From a virus (Duplodnaviria > Caudoviricetes): a DNA stretch of 37,153 nucleotides. Positions 4,121 to 20,509 of this stretch are shown one piece after another. The stretch spans positions 1-37,153 of the IMG/VR virus record IMGVR_UViG_3300005077_000052. One strand, written 5' to 3'. How positions within the stretch are numbered: position 1 is the stretch's first letter; each line of letters starts with the position of its first letter. The translations under genes and the position numbers were made by a program. Under the pieces are notes generated by a model. That model was not told where the DNA came from. It did not search any database and saw nothing but the letters and a program-made list of their open reading frames with translations.

Positions 4121-4148
4121 ATGATTATTTTCAACAATGTTTCAATCC

Positions 4149-4171: not shown

Positions 4172-4198
4172 CAATTCAAATTAAAAGGAGATTAAACC

Positions 4199-4609: not shown

Positions 4610-4644
4610 AAAATCTTAGTTCTTTGATAAGTTCTTTGAATGAT

Positions 4645-4850
4645 ACAAATGTTACATTGTTTTTATATAAAAAATGTAATATTGTCATATCGTCACATTG
4701 TATCAACGTCACATTGTTGTATGTTCCTCCTATTTTTCATTTTGGGTGCACACAGCAAGGGAGTCGCCTCCTTAGCCTATTACAAGTAAGTCTCTTATAA
4801 GGAAGGTGGGGCGATGGGGACACATGCCGTTGTTGTGACAAATGTTACAT
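4645..4850. repeat. Iteron-like short repeat region
   Basis: Six tandem 8-mers YGTnnnAW (4675-4722); CGTCACATTGT twice (4691, 4707); ACAAATGTTACAT twice (4645, 4838). Confidence 0.65.
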
Positions 4851-5051
4851 AATTGCATTGTGGCCTTTCAACCAGTTCAAAACCTAACACTATGTTGTAT
4901 AAAGGTAATGAAATGAATCTTTTAACTAATTTAGGTGATTTATTAAGTGAATTTCCTGGGGAATTTTTCCTCTGGCTTTTCATCTTACTTTTTATTCACA
5001 TTTCAACTAAACTTAAAGTTAAATCTAAACTTAAATCAAGGAGATAAATTT

Positions 5052-5546: not shown

Positions 5547-5558
5547 AAGAGGTTAAAA

Positions 5559-5906
5559 ATGAAAAAACATTTGACTAATTTAGAAAGATTCAACCTGTAC
5601 AAATTTATTGAGGAGAATAAAGAGAAAATTGAATCAGGTGAAATTACCTCAACAATGATTCAAGAACAATTCAACCTCAGATCAAAATTTCCAATTCATG
5701 ATGCATTCAAAGTATTAGGCATTAAAGATAAGAAGGTTGTAGTTAGGGTGGCTTTAAAAAAGAATGATATTAAACAGATTCATAAATGGATAAGGAGTTT
5801 GGCCATAGCCATTAATGAAATGTCTGATGATTGTGGGAGCAAGCCATTTCAATCTGTTTTAAACATTATAAATGAAACATATTATTTAATTGAAGATGGA
5901 AATTAG
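5559..5906 (+). CDS. Hypothetical protein
   Basis: 115-aa ORF with GAGG RBS. Confidence 0.75.
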   Translation: MKKHLTNLERFNLYKFIEENKEKIESGEITSTMIQEQFNLRSKFPIHDAFKVLGIKDKKVVVRVALKKNDIKQIHKWIRSLAIAINEMSDDCGSKPFQSVLNIINETYYLIEDGN

Positions 5907-5921
5907 ATAAAATGTGAATTG

Positions 5922-5944
5922 CTGTATGCATTTTTTGCATACAG
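5922..5944. repeat. Dispersed palindrome copy 3 (CTGTATGCA TTTTT TGCATACAG)
   Basis: Read directly; perfect 14-bp arms when extended to 5917-5949. Confidence 0.95.
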
Positions 5945-6028
5945 CAATTAAACTTTTGACTTAATTAAATTAAGGAGATTTAAAAATGTTGAAAATGAAA
6001 GATAACTATAAAATTAAGAGGAGGTTAA

Positions 6029-6394
6029 ATGAGTCCAACTATCACAATTAGCTGTAGGGTGAATGTAAGATCACTTGCCCAAGTTGTCCTCTTCCTTGAA
6101 AAAGCAGGAGGGAAAATTAACTCAGGATCAAAGGCAGTTTATCTGTCCATTGAATTTCTATCTGCCCAACTTGACAAAAACCATTACTATAAACCTTCAA
6201 CAATTGAGGAGGCAGTTAAAATCATCAGCCCTTATTTAAATAACAGAAACAGGTCAAAAAAACTGTTAAATGCATTAGGTGAGGAAAATTTAAAATTTGA
6301 CCCTCTCCTCAATGTAGATAAAACTTGTGTTGAGAAGAAGGAGGAAATTGATCCATCTATGTTTAACGAAGTATTAAATAAATTGAAGGGGTAA
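6029..6394 (+). CDS. Hypothetical protein, possible ribbon-helix-helix N-terminus
   Basis: GGAGG RBS; alternating beta pattern TITISCRV followed by two helices. Confidence 0.6.
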   Translation: MSPTITISCRVNVRSLAQVVLFLEKAGGKINSGSKAVYLSIEFLSAQLDKNHYYKPSTIEEAVKIISPYLNNRNRSKKLLNALGEENLKFDPLLNVDKTCVEKKEEIDPSMFNEVLNKLKG

Positions 6395-6397
6395 ATT

Positions 6398-6754
6398 ATG
6401 AAATTTAAAGGTGTTAAAGTAATTCCATTTCCAGAAATAGAAAATGCCTATGTAGTTATATCAGCAAGATATAATGAAGAAAAATGCAACAAATGTGAGC
6501 CAATTATGTCTTTTCTCTATGCTAATGAGACAAGAGGTGTAGAATGGGAGCCAAGTTATGGTCCTATAACACTTCTTATTTCATGTGGTAACAGACACCC
6601 AGAAGCAAGAGAACATTTCTTCTTTCCTTACATAACAGGATATGGAAATTGGACACAGTTAGGCGTAAATGATAATCTTTTAGGAAGAAGATTTTCAAAA
6701 GGAGATTATGAAGGAATCTTTAATGTATTGAAAAGTTATATAGAGGAAGAATAA
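6398..6754 (+). CDS. Hypothetical protein
   Basis: 118-aa ORF packed in operon. Confidence 0.75.
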   Translation: MKFKGVKVIPFPEIENAYVVISARYNEEKCNKCEPIMSFLYANETRGVEWEPSYGPITLLISCGNRHPEAREHFFFPYITGYGNWTQLGVNDNLLGRRFSKGDYEGIFNVLKSYIEEE

Positions 6755-6866
6755 ATTATGAATACTTGTGCTAAATGTATTTACTATGGTAAACAATGTC
6801 CTGGTAATTATGCCGTAAGTGGAATCTTATAGTGTACGCTTTTTACTTATAACTCAGAAGGAGAAA

Positions 6867-7085
6867 ATGAAAATGAGAACCTCACACACCGAGCAAGTTA
6901 TTGATGGATTAAGTAGATTAATCTATCAAATAGCAGAAAATTTAAGCTCTGAACAGTATTATCCAGGACAAGATCCAGATAAAATGGATTCTGATATCGC
7001 AGATTTAACTAAACAGTTTAAAGCCTTAACTAAAATGCGTACAGATTTTGAAATAATCTGCACAAAATGTATAATTAAGGAGTAG
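6867..7085 (+). CDS. Hypothetical protein
   Basis: AAGGAG RBS before ATG 6867/6873 within ORF 6819..7085. Confidence 0.7.
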   Translation: MKMRTSHTEQVIDGLSRLIYQIAENLSSEQYYPGQDPDKMDSDIADLTKQFKALTKMRTDFEIICTKCIIKE

Positions 7086-7088
7086 AAA

Positions 7089-7268
7089 ATGAAAAACACA
7101 AAACACGAAGATATAAGACTTTTCACTAACCTTTACTACTTCGAAGACGGAGATGAATACTACACAGGTGATATTTATTCTTCAAAAGAAGAAGCTATGG
7201 CGAGTAAAGCAGCTTTTAAAACTTACATCTTCACGGCAGAACTTATGCATGTTGAAGAAAGGAGATAG
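7089..7268 (+). CDS. Hypothetical 59-aa protein (MKNTKHEDIRLFTNLYYFEDG...)
   Basis: Translated by hand; AAGGAG RBS; fills the gap between neighbours. Confidence 0.7.
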   Translation: MKNTKHEDIRLFTNLYYFEDGDEYYTGDIYSSKEEAMASKAAFKTYIFTAELMHVEERR

Positions 7269-7269
7269 G

Positions 7270-7479
7270 ATGAAATCTATCATCCTCTCTGCCTTGTTCG
7301 TCCTCATACTGTCCAGTTCAACCAGTACGAAGACGCCAGGCCAGTTCAACTACATGAACACATTCAAATCTTCAGGAGTAGGAATAAATCCTGTTTATGA
7401 AGCAAATAGAGAGTATAAGAAACCAAATGCACAGCTTAAGAAGAAAAACTTTATTCCAAGAAAATATAGGAGAAAATAA
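7270..7479 (+). CDS. Small protein with hydrophobic N-terminus and basic tail
   Basis: AAGGAG RBS before ATG 7270 (MKSIILSALFVLILSS...). Confidence 0.65.
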   Translation: MKSIILSALFVLILSSSTSTKTPGQFNYMNTFKSSGVGINPVYEANREYKKPNAQLKKKNFIPRKYRRK

Positions 7480-7481
7480 AA

Positions 7482-8081
7482 ATGGAAATAACTGAGAAAG
7501 ATATCGGAAGAAGGGTTTTGGTAAATGGTAAAGTAGACGAAGAAACTTTCACTAAGGAACTTGGAACAATTAAGTATATTGACAGCTGTTATAACATAGG
7601 TGTTGAATTTGATAAAGCAAGAAACAGTTTACATACTTGTAGCGGTTTTACTGAAGAAAACCGTGGCTGGTGGGTAAGAGAAGAACATATAACCTTTGTT
7701 GAAGATGAGAAGAAAACAGAAAAAGCATATTCTGGCCTTGACGTTGACTTGCCTGAAGTCCAGGCGTTGATTGGAAAGGAAGTGATGTTTTCAGATAATG
7801 GTATTAAGTGGTTAGGACCATTTAAATTGAAAAAATTTGATCCTTTAGACAATTATAAGTTTGTAAAAGAATTTCTTGTAAATTATAACTACATCAAAAC
7901 AATTCCAGAACCATTTATTTCTAATTGTTATTTCTGTGGTTCTTCAGCTACTTCTGTAATTACAACATACACAAGTGTCAAAGACAAAGTTGACGTTAAT
8001 GTAAGATGTAAAGCTTGTGAAGCAGATGGACCAAGAAAACCAACTAAAGAAGCTGCTATAAAAGCTTGGAATAAGGATTAA
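7482..8081 (+). CDS. Multidomain protein with C-terminal Lar (restriction alleviation)-like Zn domain
   Basis: CYFCG...VRCKACEADGP...TKEAAIKAWN is the Lar family pattern; N-terminal SH3-like IGVEFD...HTC..GWWV. Confidence 0.65.
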   Translation: MEITEKDIGRRVLVNGKVDEETFTKELGTIKYIDSCYNIGVEFDKARNSLHTCSGFTEENRGWWVREEHITFVEDEKKTEKAYSGLDVDLPEVQALIGKEVMFSDNGIKWLGPFKLKKFDPLDNYKFVKEFLVNYNYIKTIPEPFISNCYFCGSSATSVITTYTSVKDKVDVNVRCKACEADGPRKPTKEAAIKAWNKD

Positions 8082-8101
8082 AAATAGAAAAACATCAATT
8101 G

Positions 8102-8124
8102 CTGTATGCAGAAAATGTACACAG
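8102..8124. repeat. Dispersed palindrome copy 4 (CTGTATGCA GAAAA TGTACACAG)
   Basis: Read directly; variant right arm. Confidence 0.9.
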
Positions 8125-8162
8125 CGATTGAGCTTTAACTTAAATTTAAAAAAGGTGAATAA

Positions 8163-8396
8163 ATGAAAAAAGAAATGGTAGAGGTCATGAAAGAAAGCTT
8201 CAATGGAAGCGACGAAGAGCTTGCGGCCTATAGACAAGGCTTTTATACCGGATGGCTAAAGGCATTACAAAAAATAGACCAAGATAAGCATCCGTGCGGA
8301 ATATGTTTGAGGCTACTTGATGATCAACACAAAGGGCCTTGGTTGGTACACTGCCCAAACTGCGGCAGGAAATTGGAGAAGGAGAAGGAGGATTAA
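8163..8396 (+). CDS. Small zinc-ribbon protein
   Basis: CGIC...HCPNCGRKL. Confidence 0.7.
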   Translation: MKKEMVEVMKESFNGSDEELAAYRQGFYTGWLKALQKIDQDKHPCGICLRLLDDQHKGPWLVHCPNCGRKLEKEKED

Positions 8397-8683
8397 AATG
8401 TTTTATTTAAAAATGTATATTACTATTCAATTATGTGTTCATTTTATACTTGCAATTCTTTATTTAATATATGCTTTTCTTATATTTATTGAATATTTTA
8501 CGCAGTCATAAAGGAGGAATAGCTAATGATTAAAATAATTGTAGATAGTCTATTAGTCTTACTTGCTATGATAATGTTTTTACTTATCGGAGCAACTTTA
8601 CACGAAGCTGATATGGCAAGAAATTATAAAGAAACTGGTGATGCAAAAGCATGATTCTTTGAAATTAAGCAGTAAGGAATAAA

Positions 8684-8920
8684 ATACTCTCAATAAATTT
8701 AACAAAAGAAGAAAAAGAAAATTTTTCTTTAAAGAAGAAGGAAGTTAATTGGAATCTAAAAACTTGGATAACTTTCTTTAACTCAGAAGGTTATTTATGC
8801 AGGGAGTTTGAAAACAACGAAGATGAATATATAAGAAAAGGTGATTTAGAATCAGCTGAAAACATTTGTGAGGAGTTTTTCGGTCTTGAGCCAGATTATT
8901 TGATGGAATTATTGGATTGA
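8684..8920 (+). CDS. Hypothetical protein with atypical ATA start (or decayed gene)
   Basis: 78 open codons after an AAGGA RBS, ending ...ICEEFFGLEPDYLMELLD; no ATG near the 5' end. Confidence 0.45.
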   Translation: MLSINLTKEEKENFSLKKKEVNWNLKTWITFFNSEGYLCREFENNEDEYIRKGDLESAENICEEFFGLEPDYLMELLD

Positions 8921-9060
8921 AATGATGATCAAAATATCCAAAATTCGGTGGTTGTCGTTTGATTTGGCAATGAATTGGATTTTTCAAATGTGATAATATT
9001 GATTGAAAATCAACCGTTTAAATCGATTAAAAATAAATGAAAAAATTTTAACATTTTTTG

Positions 9061-9089
9061 TTGACAAAACCAAAAAATAAAATTAAAAT
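9061..9089 (+). promoter_or_regulatory. Strong sigma70-type promoter
   Basis: TTGACA, 17 bp, TAAAAT with A/T tracts upstream. Confidence 0.75.
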
Positions 9090-9157
9090 GAACTCAAATT
9101 GAAATTGAATGATTGTCATTCAACTTTACTTAACTTAAAAAATGAAGGAGAAAGAAA

Positions 9158-9520
9158 ATGGAGTTTAAAACTAAAATAGCTACAGAAGAACTTGATGGTA
9201 ATGGTAAGAAAGTTTATGTTGAGGTTAATTCATCTTATGACCTGACTGAGAATTTGAAAAGCTTCGTCAAAACCTATGGCGAAGATGTAGCATTTAGCTA
9301 CGTAACTGCCCAGGCTAAGGTAGTGTTGCAAGCAAGAGTAAGGGCATTGAAAGCCGCAGGTAAAACTGACGAAGAGATTCAAGCTGACTTGAATGCCTAC
9401 AAACTTGGCACAATTGCTCCTCGGGTTAGAAAAGAAACCAGCTTTGAGCAGATTAAGAATGACTTTAAAAATTGGTCTCCTGAGAAACAGAAGGAGTTCC
9501 TTGCCAGTTTGGGTGTTTAA
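9158..9520 (+). CDS. Hypothetical protein with its own promoter and terminator
   Basis: 120-aa ORF, AAGGAG RBS. Confidence 0.8.
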   Translation: MEFKTKIATEELDGNGKKVYVEVNSSYDLTENLKSFVKTYGEDVAFSYVTAQAKVVLQARVRALKAAGKTDEEIQADLNAYKLGTIAPRVRKETSFEQIKNDFKNWSPEKQKEFLASLGV

Positions 9521-9541
9521 TTAGTTAATTTAACTTAAGTT

Positions 9542-9574
9542 AAAAAAGGACAGGTATAAAAGCCTGTCCTTTTT
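9542..9574 (+). terminator. Rho-independent terminator, possibly bidirectional
   Basis: AAAAAAGGACAGG-TATAAAAG-CCTGTCCTTTTT. Confidence 0.85.
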
Positions 9575-9616
9575 AAAAAACTTAAAAATGATAAAAAATT
9601 TACAAAGGAACATCTA

Positions 9617-9754
9617 ATGTTATTTAAACTCAAAGTTAAAATTATCCAGGTTATAATTAAAGTTATGATTAAACAAGTTGTAGATCATGAAGTTAAATAT
9701 AACTTGGCTATTGCCAGCAACTGCTTTGATCAAATAGTTGAGAGATTAAAATAA
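9617..9754 (+). CDS. Hypothetical 45-aa protein
   Basis: AAGGA RBS; stop overlaps the ligase start (TAATG). Confidence 0.5.
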   Translation: MLFKLKVKIIQVIIKVMIKQVVDHEVKYNLAIASNCFDQIVERLK

Positions 9755-10599
9755 TGATGAATGATTATAGTGAAAAGGAAAGAAACAATATAATACTGTG
9801 TTATCCAATGGACTATAATAGGTTGAAAAAGTGGGGCTTTCCTGTCTTCATCCAACCAAAGCTGGACGGTAACCGCTGTCGTTATAGCGCTGCTGATCAA
9901 TGTCTTTACAGTTCAACAAGTGAGATTATAATCAGTGTTCCCCACATAAATGAGGTATTAATCCACCTCCCATTCAACATTCATCTTGATGGTGAACTAT
10001 ACATTCACGGCATTGAACAGAATGAAATCAATTCAATTGTATCCAGAACTGTAAACATATCTGAAGATTTTGAAAGTATGGAATATCACATCTTTGATTT
10101 AATAACTGATGATCCTCAATATTTAAGGTTAAAAGATCTTTATAAATTGAAAGAGGATATAAAAAGCGATAAAATTAAATTTGTTGAAACTAAGTTAATA
10201 TATTCACTTGAAGAACTTAACTCTGAATACCTAAACTATCTAAACAATGGTTATGAAGGCATAATCCTCCGCCACCCTTCAAATAAATACATAACAAGAA
10301 GATCAACTTATTTAATGAAGTTCAAACCTAAAAAGTTTGACTATTATAAAATAGTTGGATATGTTCAAGAGGTTGACAAACATGGAAATTTAAAGAACAG
10401 CCTCGGCTCATTAATATGTTCAGGTTTTAATGGTGAAGAATTTGGTGTTGGTTCTGGCTTCACAAGAAAACAAAGAGAAGACCTGTGGAAAGTTAAAGAA
10501 AAATTGATTGATAAATTTTGCAAAGTTGGCTATCAATCAATATCAAGTAAGAAAAAAGTTCCTCGCTTCTCCGCTTTCATTGAAGTAGTTGACCTTTAA
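9754..10599 (+). CDS. ATP-dependent DNA ligase
   Basis: Motif I QPKLDGNR, motif III LDGELY, YHIFD, motif IV YEGIILR, LMKFKP, OB-fold VGSGF and PRF. Confidence 0.92.
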   Translation: MMNDYSEKERNNIILCYPMDYNRLKKWGFPVFIQPKLDGNRCRYSAADQCLYSSTSEIIISVPHINEVLIHLPFNIHLDGELYIHGIEQNEINSIVSRTVNISEDFESMEYHIFDLITDDPQYLRLKDLYKLKEDIKSDKIKFVETKLIYSLEELNSEYLNYLNNGYEGIILRHPSNKYITRRSTYLMKFKPKKFDYYKIVGYVQEVDKHGNLKNSLGSLICSGFNGEEFGVGSGFTRKQREDLWKVKEKLIDKFCKVGYQSISSKKKVPRFSAFIEVVDL

Positions 10600-10602
10600 T
10601 CC

Positions 10603-10625
10603 CTGTATGCATAATATGCATACAG
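10603..10625. repeat. Dispersed palindrome copy 5 (CTGTATGCA TAATA TGCATACAG)
   Basis: Read directly; 3 bp after the ligase stop. Confidence 0.95.
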
Positions 10626-10659
10626 TGATAATTGAATAAGATAAAAAATGGAGCATTAA

Positions 10660-11643
10660 ATGAATCTGAATGAAAATTTAAATTGGCCCATACCTTTCAA
10701 CAACTGTTGGAATGATCTTGACAGTTCAAAGATTCAAGATTACATAGAATGTCCAAGAAAATTCTTCTATCGTCATGTCCTTGGCTGGCAAACTAACAGT
10801 CCTAACAACCATTTAATTTTTGGTCAAGCTGTCCATATTGCCATGGAACATCTTTACATCAATGGCTTTTCACCTTCAACTGTTGTTGACGCTTTTCAAC
10901 TATTTCTAAATGAATATAGAACATACTTCCCTGAACATACAGATGAATGGTTTGAGCCTAAAACACCCAACCGCTTCTTCGCTTTCCTTTCAGAGTACAT
11001 CCAAAAGTATGCAGACGACTTCAGACGTTACAAGGTGTTATACACCGAAGTGACTGGCCGAGTTAATTTAACTGAAGATGAAAATATAATCTTCAAAATT
11101 GATGCAATTATTGAAAATAAAAATAATAACAGAATTAAAACCCTCGAACATAAGACTAAACAAGGTGATTTCAATTCAACTTGGGATAACCAATGGACAT
11201 TAGGTATTCAAGCCGGAACTTACACCCATGCTTTATACTCAATCTACCCACCTAACCTGGTCGATGGTGTCCTCATCAACGGTCTCGGCTTTAAGAAAAC
11301 TAAAAGCTATATGTTTAGTTTCACAAGAGTGCCTGTTTATAAGAATAATAAACAGATGCAAATTTGGCTAACAACTATTTTAAGTTGGATAGATTTAATT
11401 AAAGCAGATTTTGAAAAGTTAAGCAATTCAAAGGACATTGACCCAGTAATGGCAGCATTTAGATTGAATCCAAAAAGCTGTACAAACTATGCAACAACTT
11501 GTACCTATCACGATTTCTGCTGCAACTGGACCAACCCCCTTCAAGAAGCCTTCAGCCCACCATTGGGTTATGAAGTTAAGTTTTGGGACCCATTAGTTGA
11601 GTTACATTCAACTACAAATATTGATGAGATTAAATTAAAATAA
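10660..11643 (+). CDS. PD-(D/E)XK Cas4/RecB-like exonuclease
   Basis: ECPRKF, FGQAVH, KID...LEHKT, QAGTY and C-terminal Cys cluster (SCTNYATTCTYHDFC) consistent with Fe-S binding. Confidence 0.85.
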   Translation: MNLNENLNWPIPFNNCWNDLDSSKIQDYIECPRKFFYRHVLGWQTNSPNNHLIFGQAVHIAMEHLYINGFSPSTVVDAFQLFLNEYRTYFPEHTDEWFEPKTPNRFFAFLSEYIQKYADDFRRYKVLYTEVTGRVNLTEDENIIFKIDAIIENKNNNRIKTLEHKTKQGDFNSTWDNQWTLGIQAGTYTHALYSIYPPNLVDGVLINGLGFKKTKSYMFSFTRVPVYKNNKQMQIWLTTILSWIDLIKADFEKLSNSKDIDPVMAAFRLNPKSCTNYATTCTYHDFCCNWTNPLQEAFSPPLGYEVKFWDPLVELHSTTNIDEIKLK

Positions 11644-11654
11644 AAGGAGAAAGT

Positions 11655-11864
11655 ATGAAAAATTGGATAGACATTGAAAGCTTATGTGTTGAAGTTGACA
11701 CCTCAATTTTAATCAAAGAACCTCCCTGCTCTAACTGTTTAAATTGGAAGCCTCATAAAGATATTCAACAATTTGCTGATGGATCAATAGTTGTTTGTGG
11801 AATAACTTGTTGTACAGCATCTTCAATGTATAAAGATTTTTCCTGTTATGAAGGTAAAGAATAA
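11655..11864 (+). CDS. Small Cys-rich protein
   Basis: AAGGAG RBS; CSNCLNW...CC...C. Confidence 0.65.
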   Translation: MKNWIDIESLCVEVDTSILIKEPPCSNCLNWKPHKDIQQFADGSIVVCGITCCTASSMYKDFSCYEGKE

Positions 11865-11890
11865 AAGAATAATAAATAAAAAGGTGAATT

Positions 11891-12709
11891 ATGACTGAAA
11901 ATTTAAATGAGAATAAAGAATTTCTCGAAAGTAAGAAAACAGCGGCTGACCTTCTAAATCTATACAAAAATGATCCTCGTCAGAAAACTTTCAACCTCCT
12001 CCTCTTAGGTGAAATGGGGACAGGTAAAACTTTTCTCGCTCGAACTGCTCGCAAACCTATCCTCTTTCACAGCTTCGATCCTGGTGGAACTAAGAGTGTT
12101 CGTGATCTAATTGAAACCGGAGATATAATTGCCGATACTCGATATGAATCTGAAAACCCTATGCGCCCAACTATGTTCCCTATCTGGCAAAAAGAAATGG
12201 ATAGGTTGGATAAAGAAGGTGTGTTCAAGCATTTTGGAACATTCATAATTGACAGCTCAACTTCATGGGCTGAGATGATCATGAATGACATTTTGAAGAA
12301 GGCTGGAATACCTGGTCAAGCGCCACGTTTCACCCACGACTATACACCTCAAAAGACATTAATCCGTAATTTCATCCGCCAGTGTCTCGACCTGCCTTGT
12401 GACTTCATCTTAACTGGCCATCTGGCTATGCATACTGATGAGGTCAGCAAGCGTATATCATACAGGTATGCAACTACGGGTCAGGGAACTGTGACCATCC
12501 CCACTTTGTTTGATGAAGTGTGGGTGATGGACCCTAAAACTGGTTCAAATGGCACAACATATAGAATTCTAACACAGAGTACAGGAACTCACGCCTGTCG
12601 TAGTCGTCTCAGTTCAACTGGAAAGCTTGAGCAATATGAAGAGCCGAACATTAAGAATATTTTGAAAAAGGTTGGCCTTGAATATAATGATAAACCTAAG
12701 TTAGTTTAA
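11891..12709 (+). CDS. Sak4-like / AAA_24 P-loop ATPase (recombinase)
   Basis: Walker A GEMGTGKT, Walker B FIIDS, ILTGH, CRSR; context between a Cas4-like nuclease and an SSB-like gene. Confidence 0.8.
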   Translation: MTENLNENKEFLESKKTAADLLNLYKNDPRQKTFNLLLLGEMGTGKTFLARTARKPILFHSFDPGGTKSVRDLIETGDIIADTRYESENPMRPTMFPIWQKEMDRLDKEGVFKHFGTFIIDSSTSWAEMIMNDILKKAGIPGQAPRFTHDYTPQKTLIRNFIRQCLDLPCDFILTGHLAMHTDEVSKRISYRYATTGQGTVTIPTLFDEVWVMDPKTGSNGTTYRILTQSTGTHACRSRLSSTGKLEQYEEPNIKNILKKVGLEYNDKPKLV

Positions 12710-12719
12710 ATTAAAGGGG

Positions 12720-12923
12720 GTGAATAAATTGGCTGGTAAAAAGGAATCATTTCTAAATGACGGTGATGAACAGGAGAAGAAAGAAGAAGTTGAATTAACT
12801 GACATTGAAATCGTTCAAGAAATTGAAAGGTTAATTCAAACATTGATGAAAAAGAAAGGAGACAAATACATCCTCTCAATTGGTAAATTAAAAGGTTGTA
12901 TTGAAAAACTTAATGTTAAATAA
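12720..12923 (+). CDS. Hypothetical protein
   Basis: 67-aa ORF in operon. Confidence 0.6.
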   Translation: MNKLAGKKESFLNDGDEQEKKEEVELTDIEIVQEIERLIQTLMKKKGDKYILSIGKLKGCIEKLNVK

Positions 12924-12935
12924 AAGGTCTTGAAT

Positions 12936-13022
12936 TGGCCCTTAGCTTAATAATTGTCTGAGGCATCAGCGGTAAAGCATACTCGGCGGGGTAAGTTATC
13001 GGTTCGAATCCGATAGGGCCAA
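12936..13022 (+). ncRNA. tRNA-like RNA with enlarged D-loop and a 4-nt loop in place of the anticodon loop
   Basis: Acceptor TGGCCCT/AGGGCCA, D stem GCTT/AAGC, stem TACTC/GGGTA with loop GGCG, T arm ATCGG-TTCGAAT-CCGAT. Confidence 0.75.
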
Positions 13023-13070
13023 TAAAATAATATACGATATGTTAAATTAAAAAAGGAGGTGAATGAATCG

Positions 13071-13093
13071 CTGTATGCAAAAAATGCACACAG
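13071..13093. repeat. Dispersed palindrome copy 6 (CTGTATGCA AAAAA TGCACACAG)
   Basis: Read directly; intergenic. Confidence 0.95.
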
Positions 13094-13188
13094 GAAATTA
13101 AAAAAAATCTAAAATTAAAATCTAAAAAAAATTGAATTGAATTAAAGTTAAAATTAAATTAAAATTAAAATTAAAGGAGATTAAAATC

Positions 13189-13587
13189 ATGGGATTTCTT
13201 GACATCAACACAACAGAAGCAGTAGAACCTTCAATCGCAGATGCAGGTGAAGCAAAACTTCGTATCATTGGCTATGTAACTGATGAAAATGACAATGCTA
13301 TACGCAAGGATAAGAATGGCAACAGCTACTTCATGCCACTATTCGAGATTGTTGACAATCCTACAGCCAAAGAATTGAATGATTTCATGGGTCTGCCTTC
13401 ACCTACTATGACTGATAAAGAAAGAAACAAAGCATTGTGGAAAATTGCTTCATTTGAAAAGTGTTTCTCAATTGAAGAGTGTAAAGATCACAATGAAAGC
13501 ATTGGTCATGAAGGCTATGTCATGCTTGGTCAGAAGGTGAATAAAATGTCAGGTGAAGAAGAGAACTTCATTAAACGGTATATGTAG
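13189..13587 (+). CDS. Putative single-stranded DNA-binding protein (DUF669-like)
   Basis: Follows the Sak4-like gene; OB-fold-like pattern with KNGNSYFMPLFEI and C-terminal NFIKRY; no acidic tail. Confidence 0.55.
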   Translation: MGFLDINTTEAVEPSIADAGEAKLRIIGYVTDENDNAIRKDKNGNSYFMPLFEIVDNPTAKELNDFMGLPSPTMTDKERNKALWKIASFEKCFSIEECKDHNESIGHEGYVMLGQKVNKMSGEEENFIKRYM

Positions 13588-13599
13588 TTGAATTAACTT

Positions 13600-13799
13600 G
13601 GTCTTGTGGCGGAATAGGTAGACGCAAAGCAAAAGAATGTAGGAATGATCGAGAGGTTAGTTAATGCCTTTAGCTATAACAAGTACCTATTTAACATTTG
13701 CTGTGAGGAGCCGGTATCGGTTAGATTAATTACCTAACATGATAAACGTGATTAGCTTCGGAAGCTACAACTGCAAGGTGCAAATCCTTGCCAAGACCA
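13600..13799 (+). ncRNA. About 200-nt RNA with class II tRNA-like ends and a large structured insert
   Basis: Acceptor GGTCTTG/CAAGACC; Leu-type D arm TGGCGGAATAGGTAGACGC; variable-arm-like TAGCTT-CGG-AAGCTA; T arm GCAAGG-TGCAAAT-CCTTGC. Confidence 0.75.
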
Positions 13800-13809
13800 A
13801 GAAAAACAT

Positions 13810-13893
13810 ACCCACCTCGCCTCTGTCTTATGGCAAGCGCACCAGGTGACCTGAATTAACAGGTATCGTTCAGGAGACGTCTTGAAAGTGGGT
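13810..13893 (+). ncRNA. Putative multi-hairpin structured RNA
   Basis: Closing ACCCAC/GTGGGT enclosing TGTC-TTAT-GGCA, ACCTG-AATTAA-CAGGT and TTCAGGA-GACG-TCTTGAA; GC-rich in AT-rich background. Confidence 0.5.
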
Positions 13894-13921
13894 TTCTTTA
13901 ATAAATCAAAGAAGAAAAATT

Positions 13922-14206
13922 ATGTCTTTTGACATTGATCAAGGGTGTCTCGGATTATCACCACAAACAAGCAGTCTTAGAGAATGCAGGCCGGATTATG
14001 AGGCCCAAGCTGCAAATGTCAAGAAACAATTAGACAGCACGGAAGCTCTTGAAAGCGCGTTGTTTAACTTTGCTGAATCGCATAACACTTATCAGTTTAA
14101 TAAAATTTCTTCATTTGCAGAAATGCTTGGAGGAGTTTCTCTGGTAAAACACAACCTAACCAAAATGTACGAAGAACTTTTAAAGCGTATCGAAAAGGAA
14201 AAATAA
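13922..14206 (+). CDS. Hypothetical protein
   Basis: 94-aa ORF. Confidence 0.7.
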   Translation: MSFDIDQGCLGLSPQTSSLRECRPDYEAQAANVKKQLDSTEALESALFNFAESHNTYQFNKISSFAEMLGGVSLVKHNLTKMYEELLKRIEKEK

Positions 14207-14216
14207 CCATCACAAA

Positions 14217-14305
14217 GGAAAGGGCCGCACCGGATAGGCCGGGAGAGAAAATAAAGAGAAATTAACGTATCTCCAGACTTCACGCACTCTCGCGCGGTCC
14301 TTTCC
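14217..14305 (+). ncRNA. Putative structured RNA closed by a 12-bp stem
   Basis: GGAAAGGGCCGC (14217-14228) pairs with GCGGTCCTTTCC (14294-14305) with one G-U; internal CCGG/CCGG and GGAGA/TCTCC stems. Confidence 0.5.
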
Positions 14306-14326
14306 CAACTTTAAAAGGAGTTAAAA

Positions 14327-14488
14327 ATGCAAAACCATTTATATAAATACAAAAACAACTTTTACAAACAGGCCAAAACAGGCCAATGGATGATAGGTGT
14401 ATACAACACCGATTGGACTTGGTTCAACTACAAAAATCAGTCAGTAATAGAAAACGTAATTAAGTTTGGAGAGAAGGAGCTAAAATGA
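14327..14488 (+). CDS. Hypothetical 53-aa protein
   Basis: Translated by hand; AAGGAG RBS; ATGA overlap with the next gene. Confidence 0.7.
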   Translation: MQNHLYKYKNNFYKQAKTGQWMIGVYNTDWTWFNYKNQSVIENVIKFGEKELK

Positions 14489-14661
14489 AATACTTAACAA
14501 CTGTAGTAAGAGAATATACTATTATACTAACTGCAGGTGAATATGAATGGTTAAAAGGAGTTATGCAAAATCCTTTACATGGAGAAACTCCTGATCAAGA
14601 ATCAGAAATTAACAAAAAATACCGTAGAATTTTTTGGGATGCACTTAATAGGGAGAACTAA
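14485..14661 (+). CDS. Hypothetical 58-aa protein (…WLKGVMQNPL…)
   Basis: Translated by hand; AAGGAG RBS. Confidence 0.7.
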   Translation: MKYLTTVVREYTIILTAGEYEWLKGVMQNPLHGETPDQESEINKKYRRIFWDALNREN

Positions 14662-14675
14662 GAGGTAAAAATGAA

Positions 14676-14933
14676 ATGAATAAAAAAGATACGCAAAGAA
14701 TAACTTGTGAAGTTTCAGATGAATTAAAAATGAGAGTCGTTAACACCTTTGACCATGGTGAGGTTAAAAGGCTGATTAATGTATTCCTAACTAAATTCTT
14801 CGAAGCTTATGACAAATACGGTGAAGTGGTGAAGTTCACAATGCTCGCTGGAGATATAAATGTCTTAGACATTGTGAAAGAATTGAAACCTGTTGAGAGT
14901 AAAAAGAAAAAAAATAATAAAAAGGAGAATTAA
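14676..14933 (+). CDS. Putative ribbon-helix-helix DNA-binding protein
   Basis: TQRITCEVSDELKMRV...VKRLINVFL resembles an RHH beta-alpha-alpha pattern. Confidence 0.55.
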   Translation: MNKKDTQRITCEVSDELKMRVVNTFDHGEVKRLINVFLTKFFEAYDKYGEVVKFTMLAGDINVLDIVKELKPVESKKKKNNKKEN

Positions 14934-14936
14934 ATC

Positions 14937-15212
14937 ATGGAAATTATAGCTAAAACTGATTTAGGTGTGTTAATATCTGCTACTAAAAAAGAGGTAGAAG
15001 AAATTTTAACTGCTGTTAATGGTATAAAACCTAGTGAATTAAAAATAGGTATGAAAATTCCTGCTATTGATTATGCTTCTACTATTTTAAAAATAAAAAA
15101 TTTACCTGAAAATATTATAATTAAAAATTTATATTATGAATCAGAAAAATTTAATAATCTTATAAATAGTTTAAAGGAAGTTATAGATTCTACTAAATTA
15201 TTAGAAGATTAA
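14937..15212 (+). CDS. Hypothetical protein (very AT-rich)
   Basis: 91-aa ORF, AAGGAG RBS. Confidence 0.7.
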   Translation: MEIIAKTDLGVLISATKKEVEEILTAVNGIKPSELKIGMKIPAIDYASTILKIKNLPENIIIKNLYYESEKFNNLINSLKEVIDSTKLLED

Positions 15213-15222
15213 AAGGTAAATA

Positions 15223-15462
15223 ATGCCTACAATTCACACCTTACATAAATCAATAACTGAAATGGATAGAGTGAATGTCTTTAATTTAATTGAAGAGATT
15301 AAAGTGCGTAGAAAGGTGCCAACTAAAACTGTTGAGCAGAGGGAGAAGATAGTTAAAAGTAAAAAGCCTAAAACATCTGACCCATTAGCATTAGCTAAAA
15401 GTTTAAATGCAGATGAAAAGGAAAAATTAAAACAGGCTTTACTTTCTTTGATGAATAGTTAG
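15223..15462 (+). CDS. Hypothetical basic protein
   Basis: 79-aa ORF directly upstream of the ParB-MTase gene. Confidence 0.7.
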   Translation: MPTIHTLHKSITEMDRVNVFNLIEEIKVRRKVPTKTVEQREKIVKSKKPKTSDPLALAKSLNADEKEKLKQALLSLMNS

Positions 15463-15493
15463 TTAAACTAAAAACAGATGGAGAATAAATAAA

Positions 15494-16846
15494 TTGATTG
15501 ACTATATCTTGAAAACTGTACCTCTTGATGACATTGAACTGGGTGTGAGATACAGAAAAGATTATGGCGACTTGGATGAAATGTGTTATTCAATTAAGAA
15601 GAATGGCCAGATCAGTCCAATAACCTTAGGCCTCAACCCTGATCGAGCTTCATCTAAACCATACATCCTTGCAGCTGGTGGTAGAAGATTTTCTGCCTTT
15701 ACAAAAATGGCAGCTGTTGATGGGAAGTTTAAACAGATTGATGCTAAAATTTACAATAAAATCTTATCTGACCTTGAAATTAGATCAATTGAACTGTGCG
15801 AAAACATTCATCGTAAAGACTTTGATTATGCTGAAAAATTAAAAATAACAGCTGAGGTTCAAAGGCTACAAGTCATGATTCACGGTGAGAAGGTTTCCAG
15901 AGATCCTGACGCACCTGGCTGGTCACAGGCAGATACAGCCAAGCTCCTTGGAAAGTCTGCAAGTTCAATAGCCGCTGATTTAAAACTCGCTAAAGCCATT
16001 GAACAGATACCTGAACTGGCTAATTGTAAGAATAAAAATGAAGCCTTTAAAAAATTACATAACATTGAGTCAAGTATAATTAACTCACAACTTTCTAATA
16101 ATTATAAAAAGGCATTGAAGAATGAAGATAGTATCCAATCTAAATTAATCAACGCTTACATCCTTGGAGACTTTTTTGAAGTTGTTAAAAAAATTCCTGA
16201 CAACACAGTTGACTTCTGTGAAATTGACCCACCTTATGCAATCAACCTTAATGATCTTAAAAAGAAGGAATATAATAGTAGTGTAAAAACATACAATGAA
16301 ATTGATGTTAGTGAATATATTGACTTTATGAATAAAACCTTTAAACAATGTTATAGAATTATGAAGCCTGATTCTTGGTTAATTTGCTGGTTCGCACCTG
16401 AACCCTGGTTCAATACAATTTATGAATTATTAACTTCTAACGATTTCAAAACTAATAGAATGGTAGGAGTTTGGAATAAGAATGTAGGTCAAAATATGTC
16501 ACCTACAACCCGTCTAACTAATGTCTATGAAATGTTTTTCTATGCAAGAAAGGGTAGTGCAACTTTAAATAAACCTGGAAGTAATAATATGTTTAACTTC
16601 TTACCTGTCCCTGCAGGTGAAAAATATCACCCAACACAAAGACCTAACACATTGATTAAGGAAATTTTAAGAACCTTCTGCAAACCTAACAGCAATATCT
16701 TCATCCCCTTCCTTGGCTCAGGTCAAACTATTTTATCCGCTCACGAACTTGACATGACAGCTTATGGAACTGAACTTTCTAAAGACTTTAAAGATGAATA
16801 TATAATTAGAATTAGAGAAGAAATTAAAACTCAATCACAGGAATAA
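15494..16846 (+). CDS. ParB N-terminal domain + HTH + beta-class N6A/N4C DNA methyltransferase fusion
   Basis: ParB motifs GQISPI, AGGRR, ENIHRKD; HTH WSQADTAKLLGKSASSIAADLKLA; MTase DPPY, HPTQRP, PFLGSG. Confidence 0.88.
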   Translation: MIDYILKTVPLDDIELGVRYRKDYGDLDEMCYSIKKNGQISPITLGLNPDRASSKPYILAAGGRRFSAFTKMAAVDGKFKQIDAKIYNKILSDLEIRSIELCENIHRKDFDYAEKLKITAEVQRLQVMIHGEKVSRDPDAPGWSQADTAKLLGKSASSIAADLKLAKAIEQIPELANCKNKNEAFKKLHNIESSIINSQLSNNYKKALKNEDSIQSKLINAYILGDFFEVVKKIPDNTVDFCEIDPPYAINLNDLKKKEYNSSVKTYNEIDVSEYIDFMNKTFKQCYRIMKPDSWLICWFAPEPWFNTIYELLTSNDFKTNRMVGVWNKNVGQNMSPTTRLTNVYEMFFYARKGSATLNKPGSNNMFNFLPVPAGEKYHPTQRPNTLIKEILRTFCKPNSNIFIPFLGSGQTILSAHELDMTAYGTELSKDFKDEYIIRIREEIKTQSQE

Positions 16847-16850
16847 TTTT

Positions 16851-19319
16851 ATGTTCAAAACCTATGTACCACCTTCTGGTGATCCAAAATCTTGTAAATA
16901 TATAATAGTGGGTGAACAGCCTGGACGTGTGGAAGTCATACGCCAAAAACCTTTCATCGGCCCTGATGGTCAACAGCTGGATCAAATTCTACAAGATGCT
17001 AAAGTTAAACGGTCTGATTGTTATCTAACTAATGTCTTCAAAGATATTGATCACCCTCTAAACTTCTACATGACTTTTAATAAGAATAAACCACCTACTA
17101 TTTCAAAAGAAGGTCAGGAACAGATAGATAATTTAATAAAAGAAATTAATGCCTGCTCTGCTTCAATAATCATAGCAACTGGCAATGTACCTTTATACGC
17201 CTTAACCCAGCGTTATGGTATAACAAAGTGGAGAGGCTCAATCTTATACCCAATAGACACGCCAGGTAAAATACTAATCCCTACTCTCCATCCAGCAACT
17301 ATCATTCCACCTAAATTTCAATATAAAAATAAACATCTAATCTACTTCGACGTGAGCAGGGCGAAGGAAATAAATGAAGGTAGTTTTAAACAGATAGCTA
17401 AAAACTGTATAATCTCCCCTACTTACACTCAATGTATGGACTTTTTAACTTCATGTTTAAACAGGGGTAGGAATAAAGAAGTTAGATGGATCGCTTATGA
17501 TATCGAAGTAACTAACCTCGAAGTCAGTTGTATCTCTTTCTCATATCAAGAAAATGAAGCCATTTGCATCCCATTCAATGGACCATCCGGTGATTACTTC
17601 ACAACTGAGCAGGAAGTAAACATATGGTTGAAAATTGCTGAAATTCTTGAAGATGAAAGCATACCTAAACTTGGTCAAAACCTGACATTTGACGCCCACT
17701 TCCTCCTTCGCAAGTACGGCATTCACATTGCTAATATTCACGACACTATGATCATGCAAAGGTTGTTAATGTCTGAGTATAAAATTGGCCTTGATTTCAT
17801 CGCCAGTATTTGGACTGATATAGCATATTACAAAGATGAAGGTAAATTCTGGTTGAAAGGTCTCGGCTCATTCGATCGTGGTTGGGAATATAACTGCCTT
17901 GACAGTCTTGTCTGTATTCAAGCTGCTCCTAAACAGTATAAAGAGATTGAAGAAAGGGGGTTAATTGAAACTTATAACAGAACAAGAAAAGTAATCTTCC
18001 CTCTAATCTACATGATGGAACGTGGGACTAAGATCAACTTATCTGAAATGCAAAAAGCTTATGATGAAAGTGGAATTAAAATTCATGAAACTAAGCTTAA
18101 ACTTAATGAGATGTGTAAGAAGGAATTGAATGCCAACTCACCTAAACAACTTGCTGATTATTTTTACAAAGAAAGGGGAATCAAAGCTTATGTAAATAAA
18201 AAAGGTGGTGACTCAACAGATGAAGAAGCCATGAAGAGAATTGCAAGACGTGGTTTTCCTGAAGCAGAAGTTGTTCTTGAAATTAGAAGGATGGTTAAAG
18301 AGAGGTCAACCTATCTTGACACTTCAAAGGTTGATAAAGATGGTAGGATGCGTTGTAGTTATAACCCCGCCGGCACTCGTTACAGTAGATTAAGTTCAAG
18401 TGAGAGTATATTTGGAACTGGTAATAATTTACAGAACCAACCACATTCAGTTCTTAAACATTTCATCTCTGATGATGAGTATGTAGCTTATGAAATTGAC
18501 TTGAGTCAGGCCGAGAATAGAATTGTCGCCTATGTCGGGCGTGTAACAGCGATGATTAACGCCTTTGAAACTAAACAAGATGTTCATAGCCTAACTGGTG
18601 CATTAATCAGTGGTAAGACACCTGAAGAAATTGCATATGAAGATAAGAATGACATAAAGTGTCCAATCGCTGGAGGTCAGAAAACCTGGCGTTATTGGGG
18701 GAAGAAGGCTAATCACGGCTTCAACTATGACCTTGGCCCTGACAACTTCGCTTTACATTATGAAATAGATGTAAGCTCTGGCCGGTTGATTTATAAAAAC
18801 TATCACAAGGCTTATCCTGAAATTCAAAACCACTATCACGGTTATGTCAAAACTTGCTTATTAAAAGATAGAACATTAACAAATTTAATGGGCAGGAAAA
18901 CTTACTTCATGGATAATTTAAGTGACTTTCGTGGCCGTGATCAAACCTTTAAAGCTGCCTACAGTTGCATTCCACAAGGAACCGTAGGTGACGTGATCAA
19001 CGAACGAGGACTAAACTACATCTATTATTCAAAACATTTAGAAAAAGTTGAACTATTAATGCAAGTTCATGATTCAATTAAGTTTCAAATACCTTTAAAC
19101 ATTGGTTGGCTGAATCATGCAATTCTTTTAACTGATATTAAGACTAACCTTGAACAACCTTTAACTACACATTATGGACGTCAGTTCATAATCCCTGCTG
19201 ATATTCAAATAGGTAAGAATTTTGGAGATATGGAGAAGATTAAAGCAGATGAAGTTAGTTCAAATTTAAATGAGTTTGCTACTTTGCTTGAAGAAAGATA
19301 TAATGAAACTAAAAATTAA
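16851..19319 (+). CDS. polA: Family A DNA polymerase with N-terminal family-4 uracil-DNA glycosylase-like domain and 3'-5' exonuclease
   Basis: UDG motifs VGEQPG, PFIG, LHPA; Exo DIE, NLTFD, YNCLD; Pol RLSSS, NLQN, DLSQAENR, KKANHGFNY, QGT, QVHDS. Confidence 0.92.
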   Translation: MFKTYVPPSGDPKSCKYIIVGEQPGRVEVIRQKPFIGPDGQQLDQILQDAKVKRSDCYLTNVFKDIDHPLNFYMTFNKNKPPTISKEGQEQIDNLIKEINACSASIIIATGNVPLYALTQRYGITKWRGSILYPIDTPGKILIPTLHPATIIPPKFQYKNKHLIYFDVSRAKEINEGSFKQIAKNCIISPTYTQCMDFLTSCLNRGRNKEVRWIAYDIEVTNLEVSCISFSYQENEAICIPFNGPSGDYFTTEQEVNIWLKIAEILEDESIPKLGQNLTFDAHFLLRKYGIHIANIHDTMIMQRLLMSEYKIGLDFIASIWTDIAYYKDEGKFWLKGLGSFDRGWEYNCLDSLVCIQAAPKQYKEIEERGLIETYNRTRKVIFPLIYMMERGTKINLSEMQKAYDESGIKIHETKLKLNEMCKKELNANSPKQLADYFYKERGIKAYVNKKGGDSTDEEAMKRIARRGFPEAEVVLEIRRMVKERSTYLDTSKVDKDGRMRCSYNPAGTRYSRLSSSESIFGTGNNLQNQPHSVLKHFISDDEYVAYEIDLSQAENRIVAYVGRVTAMINAFETKQDVHSLTGALISGKTPEEIAYEDKNDIKCPIAGGQKTWRYWGKKANHGFNYDLGPDNFALHYEIDVSSGRLIYKNYHKAYPEIQNHYHGYVKTCLLKDRTLTNLMGRKTYFMDNLSDFRGRDQTFKAAYSCIPQGTVGDVINERGLNYIYYSKHLEKVELLMQVHDSIKFQIPLNIGWLNHAILLTDIKTNLEQPLTTHYGRQFIIPADIQIGKNFGDMEKIKADEVSSNLNEFATLLEERYNETKN

Positions 19320-19323
19320 ATCG

Positions 19324-19346
19324 CTGTATGCATTTTATGCATACAG
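19324..19346. repeat. Dispersed palindrome copy 7 (CTGTATGCA TTTTA TGCATACAG)
   Basis: Read directly; 4 bp after the polymerase stop. Confidence 0.95.
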
Positions 19347-19382
19347 CAATCAGTTAAATTACTAATTAAAAAGGAGGGTTTA

Positions 19383-19592
19383 ATGCAAGAAGAATTTATT
19401 AATAAATTAAAAGATGAAAAATTAAAAGAATTATATACTAATTTATTTCATCTTAATAAAGAAGTAAGTAAGATTGAAAAAGCTATAAAGGCATTACAAG
19501 AAATCTGTAATCATAAATTTATTGATAATGGTCATGACTCACATTATTCATATAGTATATGTATATTTTGTGGTTATGAAAGAAGAGATTAA
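19383..19592 (+). CDS. Small coiled-coil/Zn-finger protein
   Basis: GGAGG RBS; CNH...CIFCG. Confidence 0.7.
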   Translation: MQEEFINKLKDEKLKELYTNLFHLNKEVSKIEKAIKALQEICNHKFIDNGHDSHYSYSICIFCGYERRD

Positions 19593-19623
19593 AATTAATT
19601 ACTAATTAAAAGGAAGTTAAAAT

Positions 19624-19886
19624 ATGGGAATACATATTACATTAACAAATAGTAATTGTGAAGATCATCCAGATTGGGATCATTTAAGACAAGCTAATGA
19701 TTATAATTTTTATAATTTAATATCTACTATAGAAGATATTAATTATGAAGAACCTTTTAGGATTACAAGATTTGATAAAATTAGAGAAAAATAAATATTA
19801 CAAATTGGGAAAATAAAGATAGATATTTACATCTTTTAAATTTATTAGAAGGTTATGAAGAATATAAATTATATTTTTCATTTTAA
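19624..19886 (+). pseudogene. Frameshifted hypothetical gene
   Basis: MGIHITL...DKIREK stops at GAAAAATAA (about 19786-19794); one extra A continues as INITNWENKDRYLHLL...LYFSF to 19886. Confidence 0.55.
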
Positions 19887-19921
19887 TTTAAATCACTATT
19901 TTAAAAAGAAGGAGAAATAAA

Positions 19922-20509
19922 TTGGAACTATTTTTCGACACTGAAACAACAAATTTTTTATCTGACAAGTTAACCCCTGACGATCCAAAACAGGGGAGGG
20001 TTCTTCAACTTGGCTACATCCTTTCAACTAAAGATAGAATCTATCATGAGGGGTGTTTTCTAATTAACATCAACAACTGTGAGATTAATAATTATGTATT
20101 TGAAGCTCATGGGATAACAGCTGAAGAGTCGAATAAGTTTGGCATTGATGAAGTTAATGTTTGGGAAATCTTCTACAACACACTTTGTTTACAACCAACT
20201 TTAATTGCCCATAACTTCAACTTTGACATTAGGTTTTTAAGAATCTTATCACAATCTTATATGGGTGATCAAGGTTTAATTAACTCATTACCGGCTATCT
20301 GTACTATGCTTGAATCTACTAATTATTGCAAGCTGCCTAAAGCCAGAGGTGCTGGATACAAGTGGCCGAAGCTCGAAGAACTTCACAAAATTCTCTTCGA
20401 CTATGACTTTGAAGGTGCTCATAATGCTTTGGCTGATTGTCACGCAACAAGGAAATGTTTTTATAAACTGGTTGAAATGGGAGTGATTAAATATGAATTT
20501 CAAAGTTGA
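19922..20509 (+). CDS. DEDDh 3'-5' exonuclease (DnaQ-like)
   Basis: FFDTETT, HGIT, AHNFNFD, CTM, AHNALAD. Confidence 0.9.
   Translation: MELFFDTETTNFLSDKLTPDDPKQGRVLQLGYILSTKDRIYHEGCFLININNCEINNYVFEAHGITAEESNKFGIDEVNVWEIFYNTLCLQPTLIAHNFNFDIRFLRILSQSYMGDQGLINSLPAICTMLESTNYCKLPKARGAGYKWPKLEELHKILFDYDFEGAHNALADCHATRKCFYKLVEMGVIKYEFQS

Follow-up and report, generated by a model that had tools for sequence, protein, structure and literature searches.

Site-loaded clamps of the ParB family that act outside partition, fusions of ParB to DNA methyltransferases (MTases) and dispersed palindromes with a ParB-like candidate binder are already known. KorB of plasmid RK2 (PMC11790492) is a ParB-family dimer that reads the palindromic operator OB through a helix-turn-helix (HTH), lacks the Box II glutamate and forms a site-stimulated clamp acting at a distance, and the available part of that report further describes a C-terminal dimer domain, a peptide that interacts with the ParA protein IncC and promoter repression together with KorA. 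Similarly, BisD of ICEclc is a ParB-like CTP clamp on a mobile element, and from its two bisS sites it carries an extra effector, a transcription-activator domain, along the DNA (PMC12409273). Fusions of ParB to N6/N4 methyltransferases are frequent in phages, where an anti-defence role has been suggested, the accessible text giving no binding site, recognition rule or activity for them (PMC12704722). A ParB-MTase of algal transposons, for example Sola1-1_Ec32, has been suggested to bind and epigenetically modify its own element, with no sites or clamp mechanism named in the sections available (PMC12477816). In Cluster O mycobacteriophages, finally, 34 palindromes with an AT-rich centre are scattered over the genome, mostly at a distance from promoters, and Corndog gp90 is one of three candidate binders named for this repeat, whose binder was not identified in the portion of the report at hand (PMC4351075). 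A search of the literature, mostly open-access, returned no sites, recognition rule or loading-dependent activity for any ParB-methyltransferase.

The whole stretch of DNA analysed here (the window, 37,153 nt) is most of a phage genome by Pfam and PHROGs, and one of its genes encodes a fusion with the same domain pair as the phage proteins of PMC12704722 and the eukaryotic transposon protein of PMC12477816. The gene, its parts and its upstream neighbours are as follows:

15494-16846, + strand: ParB-HTH-DNA methyltransferase fusion gene, 450 aa, TTG start, intact ORF
15506-15829, + strand: ParB NTPase-fold domain, residues 5-112, with RxR box I, GGRR box II and ENxxR box III
15869-15922, + strand: pre-HTH loop, residues 126-143; residue 136 is the best predictor of motif bases -11 and -10
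15923-16003, + strand: helix-turn-helix, residues 144-170; residue 156 (15959-15961) is the best predictor of base -6, residue 157 of base -5
16142-16828, + strand: beta-class N6A/N4C methyltransferase domain, residues 217-445, including the predicted dimer interface (302-366, 394)
14676-14933, + strand: 85-aa gene, ribbon-helix-helix (RHH)-like by eye and without family match, upstream neighbour and possible partner of the fusion
15223-15462, + strand: 79-aa gene directly 5' of the fusion

Pfam, PHROGs, NCBIfam, AlphaFold2 and Foldseek concur on the domain order, which runs from a ParB NTPase fold through an HTH and a long helix to a beta-class MTase. Pfam places N6_N4_Mtase at residues 239-434 (E 5e-23) and matches ParB_N (21-106, E 9e-4) and KorB (142-178, E 6e-3) under their curated cut-offs; PHROGs ParB-like families match with E-values of 4.5e-15 to 5.6e-12. 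The AlphaFold2 model (mean pLDDT 90.4) resembles CcrM and other beta-class MTases, Noc (7nfu) and ParB (6sdk) in Foldseek. The NTPase fold carries boxes I-III, as do the ParB, Noc and KorB clamps, with AGGRR at residues 61-65 and ENIHR at 103-107. In the MTase domain motif IV (DPPY, 245-248) precedes motif I (FxGxG; FLGSG, 406-410) with catalytic residues intact, the arrangement of beta-class N6A/N4C enzymes, and the best matches to named MTase profiles lie far under their cut-offs. Residues R64, R65, E103, N104, R107, D245, G408, S409 and G410 show no variation across the 72 family proteins. The fusion shares with KorB (PMC11790492, as far as available) the ParB-family HTH, the missing Box II glutamate and a palindrome as probable operator, and a dimer that forms a site-stimulated clamp acting at a distance is predicted for it; Pfam gives a weak match to KorB. 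Unlike KorB, it has a C-terminal methyltransferase, no ParA that was found, a site of ~25 bp and a phage as host.

The fusion protein has no canonical ParB C-terminal domain. Its two-copy model dimerises through the MTase domain with a score of 0.75, versus 0.01 for the best of three controls, and the model runs show at least 65% contact agreement and a partner pLDDT of at least 77. Among proteins of solved structure, 20 of 30 one-chain pairs and 1 of 23 single chains attain the mark set for a homodimer. Solved beta-class MTases are dimers, and the model may pass the mark through its likeness to them. If the modelled interface is right, dimerisation of the MTase domain would replace the C-terminal dimer domain of ParB as the hinge of a clamp.

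Other genes of the window encode an SU10-type major capsid protein, a ligase, a PD-(D/E)xK nuclease, a Sak4-like ATPase and a primase (Pfam, PHROGs). The fusion gene immediately precedes the gene for a family A DNA polymerase with an N-terminal uracil-DNA-glycosylase-like domain (16851-19319). At 3009-3587, far from the large terminase, lies the gene of an HTH protein whose homologue in Desulfofustis phage MD01 is annotated as small terminase, and 7482-8081 encodes a protein with a C-terminal Lar-like restriction-alleviation domain. Four small early proteins (4199-4546, 4947-5546, 9158-9520 and 15223-15462) have, by eye, a similar C-terminal module without family match, in which a basic segment precedes two short helices that fit F-E-x(7-9)-L-(S/P)-x-x-(E/D)-(K/R)-x-x-L-(L/I); the module is possibly a shared interaction tag. 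A scan of the 43 window ORFs with Pfam and PHROGs detected no ParA, and the ParA profile PF13614 exceeded its cut-off in 0 of 50 records that are at least 90% complete (two weak P-loop matches; control, 14 of 14). With no ParA, the locus is not a partition system. The tyrosine integrase profile PF00589 was likewise found in 0 of 50 near-complete records, and lysogeny by this route was set aside; MD01, the nearest GenBank record, is a metagenome-assembled phage predicted to be lytic in the available text of PMC10370329.

The window contains ten exact copies of the 23-bp palindrome CTGTRTRCA-N5-TGYAYACAG, each with 0 mismatches, nine of them at gene junctions and one within a 1586-codon gene, separated by gaps of 1.3 to 8.4 kb:

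2874-2896, unstranded: palindrome 1, core 23 bp, at a gene junction
4149-4171, unstranded: palindrome 2, upstream of ORF 4199
5922-5944, unstranded: palindrome 3, 3' of the stop of ORF 5559-5906
8102-8124, unstranded: palindrome 4, between ORFs 7482-8081 and 8163
10603-10625, unstranded: palindrome 5, between the ligase and exonuclease genes
13071-13093, unstranded: palindrome 6, upstream of ORF 13189
19324-19346, unstranded: palindrome 7, just 3' of the DNA polymerase stop
27024-27046, unstranded: palindrome 8, within the 1586-codon gene
35399-35421, unstranded: palindrome 9, just downstream of the major capsid gene
37103-37125, unstranded: palindrome 10, upstream of ORF 36796-37077

No further copy appears in the window at up to 3 mismatches, and 100 shuffled versions averaged 0.05 copies, never with more than 1. 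The sequence-only reading had listed intact-looking ParB motifs, a KorB-like HTH, a complete beta-class MTase, ten dispersed palindromes and no ParA in the window; the domain assignments are borne out by Pfam, PHROGs, AlphaFold2 and Foldseek, and the palindrome count and the lack of ParA by the scans just given. Around palindrome 6 (13050-13100), a ribosome-binding-like sequence and an ATG opening a 12-codon frame overlap the repeat. Runs of AT-rich repeats of 5-6 nt lie at 2845-2870, 4998-5037, 13094-13189 and 35422-35449, three of which adjoin palindromes. Searching viral contigs for the exact motif returned 17 distinct loci, two of which (L013 and L008) are family members, the remaining loci having one match apiece; L013 matches the sequence around palindrome 10, has one more copy and continues into portal and terminase genes.

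Relatives of the fusion protein number 1,924 at E <=0.001 among 7,534 candidates; a single-protein search of viral contigs returned no relative, and an alignment-based search was needed. The family search pattern is matched by ~1,000 IMG/VR stretches, and the fusion is present in 42 of 45 records found via primase or capsid, independently of the fusion itself (31 of 32 near-complete ones). We analysed 81 records, namely the window, 7 GenBank phages, 34 of 40 records in one set and 39 of 45 in the primase/capsid set. The fusion is present in 72 of the 75 close family records, and each of these 72 has dispersed palindromes of the same design, a half-site extending from ~12 to 3 bases from the centre around an AT-rich spacer whose length deviates by one base in a few records, with a lineage-specific sequence. 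A de novo scan giving <=0.3 false matches per shuffle found 5-23 sites each in 70 of the 72, almost none near threshold, and a position weight matrix (PWM) scan found 13 sites in G023 and 9 in G072, which the symmetric scan misses because their half-sites are asymmetric. MD01 (OP947158) has 9 sites. The site of G023, with two unlike halves and a shorter spacer, is asymmetric though a homodimer is expected. G072 (43823-45250) and G078 (2522-3940) encode a divergent fusion with GERR, without the pre-HTH loop and with its own site family. Compared with the two sites and activator domain of BisD (PMC12409273, as far as available), the fusion family has 5-23 sites and a methyltransferase. Many family motifs also share the centre offsets of the Cluster O repeat, which has a GTTC core (PMC4351075, in the part available); Cluster O phages are unrelated to this phage family, and gp90 of Corndog (L527 925-2433) has ParB_N and an HTH with a different C-terminus, without a methyltransferase domain by Pfam.

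The three close relatives without the fusion (G073, G075 and G076) are also without the site family, with <=2 palindromes de novo and 2-5 in a relaxed scan versus 3-5 in shuffles. In G073 and G076 an SSB-like gene lies ~600 bp from the polymerase, so that the fusion is missing from the position where it normally lies, rather than being cut off by a contig end. Since the three form one clade, its absence counts as one loss event. In G075 (L451 and L395) the RHH-like gene is followed directly by the primase, with the exonuclease, Sak4, SSB-like, fusion and polymerase genes undetected, and this is possibly a reduced or defective phage. Beyond the family, the distant fusion-less phages PaP2, Tiera and Kuura showed no site family (<=4 matches, in GC-rich Kuura), and the distant fusion-bearing phages Mel-JY34, VS-ABTNL-3 and MW202489 none above background. 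The latter three, together with the fact that gene loss was a single event, are counter-evidence; the sites may be clade-limited or too degenerate elsewhere to detect.

Joint presence could also arise if another core protein read the palindromes, most plausibly the HTH-bearing small terminase (3009-3587 in the window). We compared protein distances with motif distances in 68 records (near-duplicates G015 and G045 dropped), using partial Mantel tests that control for core-gene distance. The correlation was 0.44 for ParB residues 126-192, 0.04 for the MTase domain, 0.07 for the RHH-like protein and 0.43 for the small terminase (57 records), the last ranging over 0.43-0.47 overall and reaching 0.58 versus 0.42 for ParB at the outer motif bases. 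At the level of whole proteins ParB and the small terminase are not separable, and it is the column-level and presence tests that separate them. Within CT-type and AG-type genomes the terminase signal drops to 0.17 and -0.06, compared with 0.28 and 0.36 for the HTH. G050 and G061 have near-identical terminase HTHs and differ at ParB residue 156 and at base -6. Moreover, all three fusion-less records keep the small terminase and have no sites, and G075 also retains the RHH-like gene, which argues against that protein too. The small-terminase alignment contains no conserved stretch usable as a search query. Reading by another protein is on these grounds very improbable.

A scan of 5,074 alignment columns from 18 core families in the 68 records, to which ParB residues 126-192 contribute 66, resolved the signal to individual positions. 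ParB 156 is the best predictor of base -6 (adjusted R2 0.64, next 0.38), 157 of base -5 (0.46, next 0.33) and 136 of bases -11 and -10 (0.76 and 0.65). A ParB loop or HTH residue ranks first at 4 of 11 motif positions and second at two more; the small terminase holds the top column at offsets -12 and -8, and elsewhere other proteins lead. By register, residue 156 corresponds to R173 of Caulobacter ParB (Q145/G153/K154/S155 pairing with Q162/G170/K171/S172), a match made from the residue numbers in the available part of PMC7383237 and not by superposition. There R173 hydrogen-bonds a parS guanine, and the residue in this register is the main specificity switch in ParB-parS and Noc-NBS (PMC7383237), with which the fusion also shares the NTPase fold and the HTH. 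The differences are that the fusion sites, unlike parS, have half-sites split by a 5-nt AT-rich spacer, that the base tracked by residue 156 lies 6 from the centre and the one read by R173 directly beside the dyad, that the pre-HTH loop tracks outer bases, that no ParA accompanies the fusion and that a single phage family has undergone many switches of specificity.

The pairing of His or Arg156 with a guanine at -6 is seen in 16 of 20 records, versus 1 of 48. On the core-gene tree (FastTree; G081 excluded for uncertain register) G(-6) changes 11 times, and across 10 independent pairs residue 156 agrees with it 9.4 times and opposes it 0 times (median p 0.002). As column 156 had been picked after the scan, we tested held-out loci, comprising 74 partial loci of which 65 have >=3 sites; 36 of them, with standard spacing, >=4 sites and <85% identity to any training HTH, were used. 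The pairing was seen in 8 of 8 versus 0 of 28 of these loci (p 3e-8), the held-out motifs having been seeded from training PWMs, such that a few 4-site calls could be background. G023, with Arg156, has the GG half-site that the rule predicts. The rule is partial, and the rare A(-7) and G(-5) of the window's own motif are unexplained by it. Because palindrome and reading residues change together across relatives, the protein very likely binds the sites, and we are confident from this comparison that its HTH docks on the palindromes as a dimer, as in clamps whose HTH reads a cognate palindrome. The sequence-only reading had offered the protein-motif link as a mere co-occurrence and had proposed looking for fusion and palindromes together in relatives and for HTH residues covarying with the motif. 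Both are found, the former in 72 records with both and 3 with neither, the latter in the pairing of residue 156 with base -6, and through joint presence and absence, the residue-base rule, the tree and the held-out loci the link now has strong comparative support. The case that it had named as contrary, palindromes kept in relatives that lack the gene, was sought and not found in the 3 of 3 fusion-less records, which stand for one loss.

Sites occupy gene junctions or edges in 737 of 843 cases, though ~90% of the DNA codes, and they make use of existing stop codons and ribosome-binding sites, consistent with economical use of space. Most lie between a stop codon and the next ribosome-binding site, where RNA hairpins (terminators, processing or translation control) or cruciform DNA might be expected, and two window copies are terminator-like, on the antisense strand. 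Against hairpins, sense-strand G-U mismatches (216) are rarer than A-C (367), arm complementarity is 77% versus 81% for randomly paired halves (z -11.5, in part a score-thresholding effect), 106 of the 843 sites lie deep in coding sequence and the site sequence tracks HTH residues, leaving this explanation barely credible. Sites number 2.7 per 10 kb, one per ~3.7 kb, with a median largest gap of 7.3 kb. The coefficient of variation (CV) of their spacing is 0.55, compared with 0.90 for uniform and 1.02 for gene-start controls, and is lower in 49 of 49 near-complete genomes; the sites are thus more even than random in all 49, unlike the centromere-like clusters of ParABS, whose cognate ParA is also lacking here. 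Genes >3 kb contain 14.3 in-gene sites per 100 kb versus 1.3-1.4 in mid-size genes, so that the giant gene, where no spacer is available, is about ten times denser in them. Sites fall on both genome arms, even the most frequently used core-gene junction carries one in at most 37 of 68 records, and the fusion gene has one ahead of it in 1 of 68. This pattern fits genome coverage better than control of particular promoters, and lends indirect support, through even spacing, junction turnover and giant-gene enrichment, to the earlier proposal of dispersed loading sites that serve coverage.

Binding and even spacing fit equally well, though, with what we regard as the main rival, in which binding and spreading of the ParB-HTH part serve a structural or transcriptional role and the activity of the methylase has no link to the sites. 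Such a clamp might coat, compact, organise or separate the genome, or regulate at a distance with the neighbouring small proteins in the manner of KorB (PMC11790492) and BisD (PMC12409273), which the available texts describe as clamps for long-range gene control. The RHH-like and 79-aa genes do lie upstream of the fusion in most family members (both were undetected in G072 and G078, which have sites, and the 79-aa gene in the three fusion-less records), and the MTase domain does not covary with the motif. On the other hand, ParB and MTase domains stay fused in 72 of 72 members with near-invariant catalytic residues in both, the MTase supplies the predicted dimer interface, and the junctions occupied by sites turn over, with few sites ahead of the fusion gene. 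A crude hexamer count shows no accumulation of consensus promoters at the sites, and a sigma-70 promoter scan of window positions 2400-20000 was at chance level (78 versus 72.7). We consider this rival unlikely, at roughly one chance in four.

The explanation that we favour has three steps. First, the fusion dimer would bind the palindromes through its HTH, which the comparisons above make highly probable. Second, given binding, a nucleotide-gated clamp would close and slide over a few kilobases, which we think probable by analogy with the loading and sliding of ParB, Noc and KorB. Third, given both, the methylase, presumed active on a target unrelated to the palindrome, would be delivered only to address-bearing DNA and modify phage DNA in cis in a site-dependent manner, a step we rate as somewhat more probable than the second. 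The likely purpose would be to protect or mark progeny genomes while host DNA stays unmodified. Dimer binding, nucleotide-gated sliding and in-cis methylation of a site-unrelated target, taken together as the whole explanation, have in our estimate an even chance of being right, and we judge sliding combined with site-dependent self-methylation to be equally balanced. The fuller proposal, an address-gated sliding methyltransferase that tells self from host by a private 25-bp address every 3-4 kb, is loaded there as a nucleotide-gated clamp and methylates the whole genome in cis, we put forward more tentatively, at a little under even.

Bearing against the second step, the nucleotide may be other than CTP, according to the accessible text of PMC12704722, and Box II reads GGRR in the fusion instead of the canonical GERR, with G in 79% and E in 21% of the family, and hence is without the catalytic Glu in most members. 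This form of Box II would suit a static dimer that does not slide and methylates or regulates nearby DNA only, as would the junction placement of most sites and the precedent of a phage ParB that activates a T-dioxygenase without needing its NTP residues (PMC13229309, as far as available). However, all three NTPase boxes retain invariant residues, the even spacing of the sites and their presence inside the giant gene point to action over a distance, and KorB, with GARR and also without the catalytic Glu, is still a site-stimulated CTPase that slides (PMC11790492, in the part available). A static dimer is in our view improbable.

As to purpose, protection from restriction had been suggested by the sequence-only reading, and this receives no support from restriction-site avoidance. 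Fusion-bearing genomes avoid palindromes with a mean log2 of -0.37 (4-bp) and -0.58 (6-bp), and the 3 fusion-less records at -0.16 to -0.23 (4-bp) and -0.24 to -0.90 (6-bp), such that avoidance of restriction sites is not relaxed in the former. Undiminished avoidance does not fit broad protection against restriction, and is a further point for a structural or transcriptional role with a site-independent methylase. CGCG, CTAG, GATC and CATG are strongly depleted in 70 fusion-bearing records; for GATC, methylation by the host or pressure from restriction may be the cause.

In a phage family that is large and for the most part uncultured, one of the core genes now has a cognate DNA site and a residue-to-base rule, so that its function can be tested with one protein and one oligonucleotide, and Corndog is a cultured phage in which the same idea is testable. 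The repeated changes of HTH specificity within the family also form a natural series. Should methylation turn out to require loading, the fusion would be a new way of modifying self DNA only and the first ParB clamp found in our literature search with an enzyme as cargo, and it could possibly serve as a tool with which methyl marks are written over kilobases, starting at an address of choice. If the address-gated sliding methyltransferase is true, self-recognition in these phages would be uncoupled from the methylated sequence, and the address would be reprogrammable via a few HTH residues.
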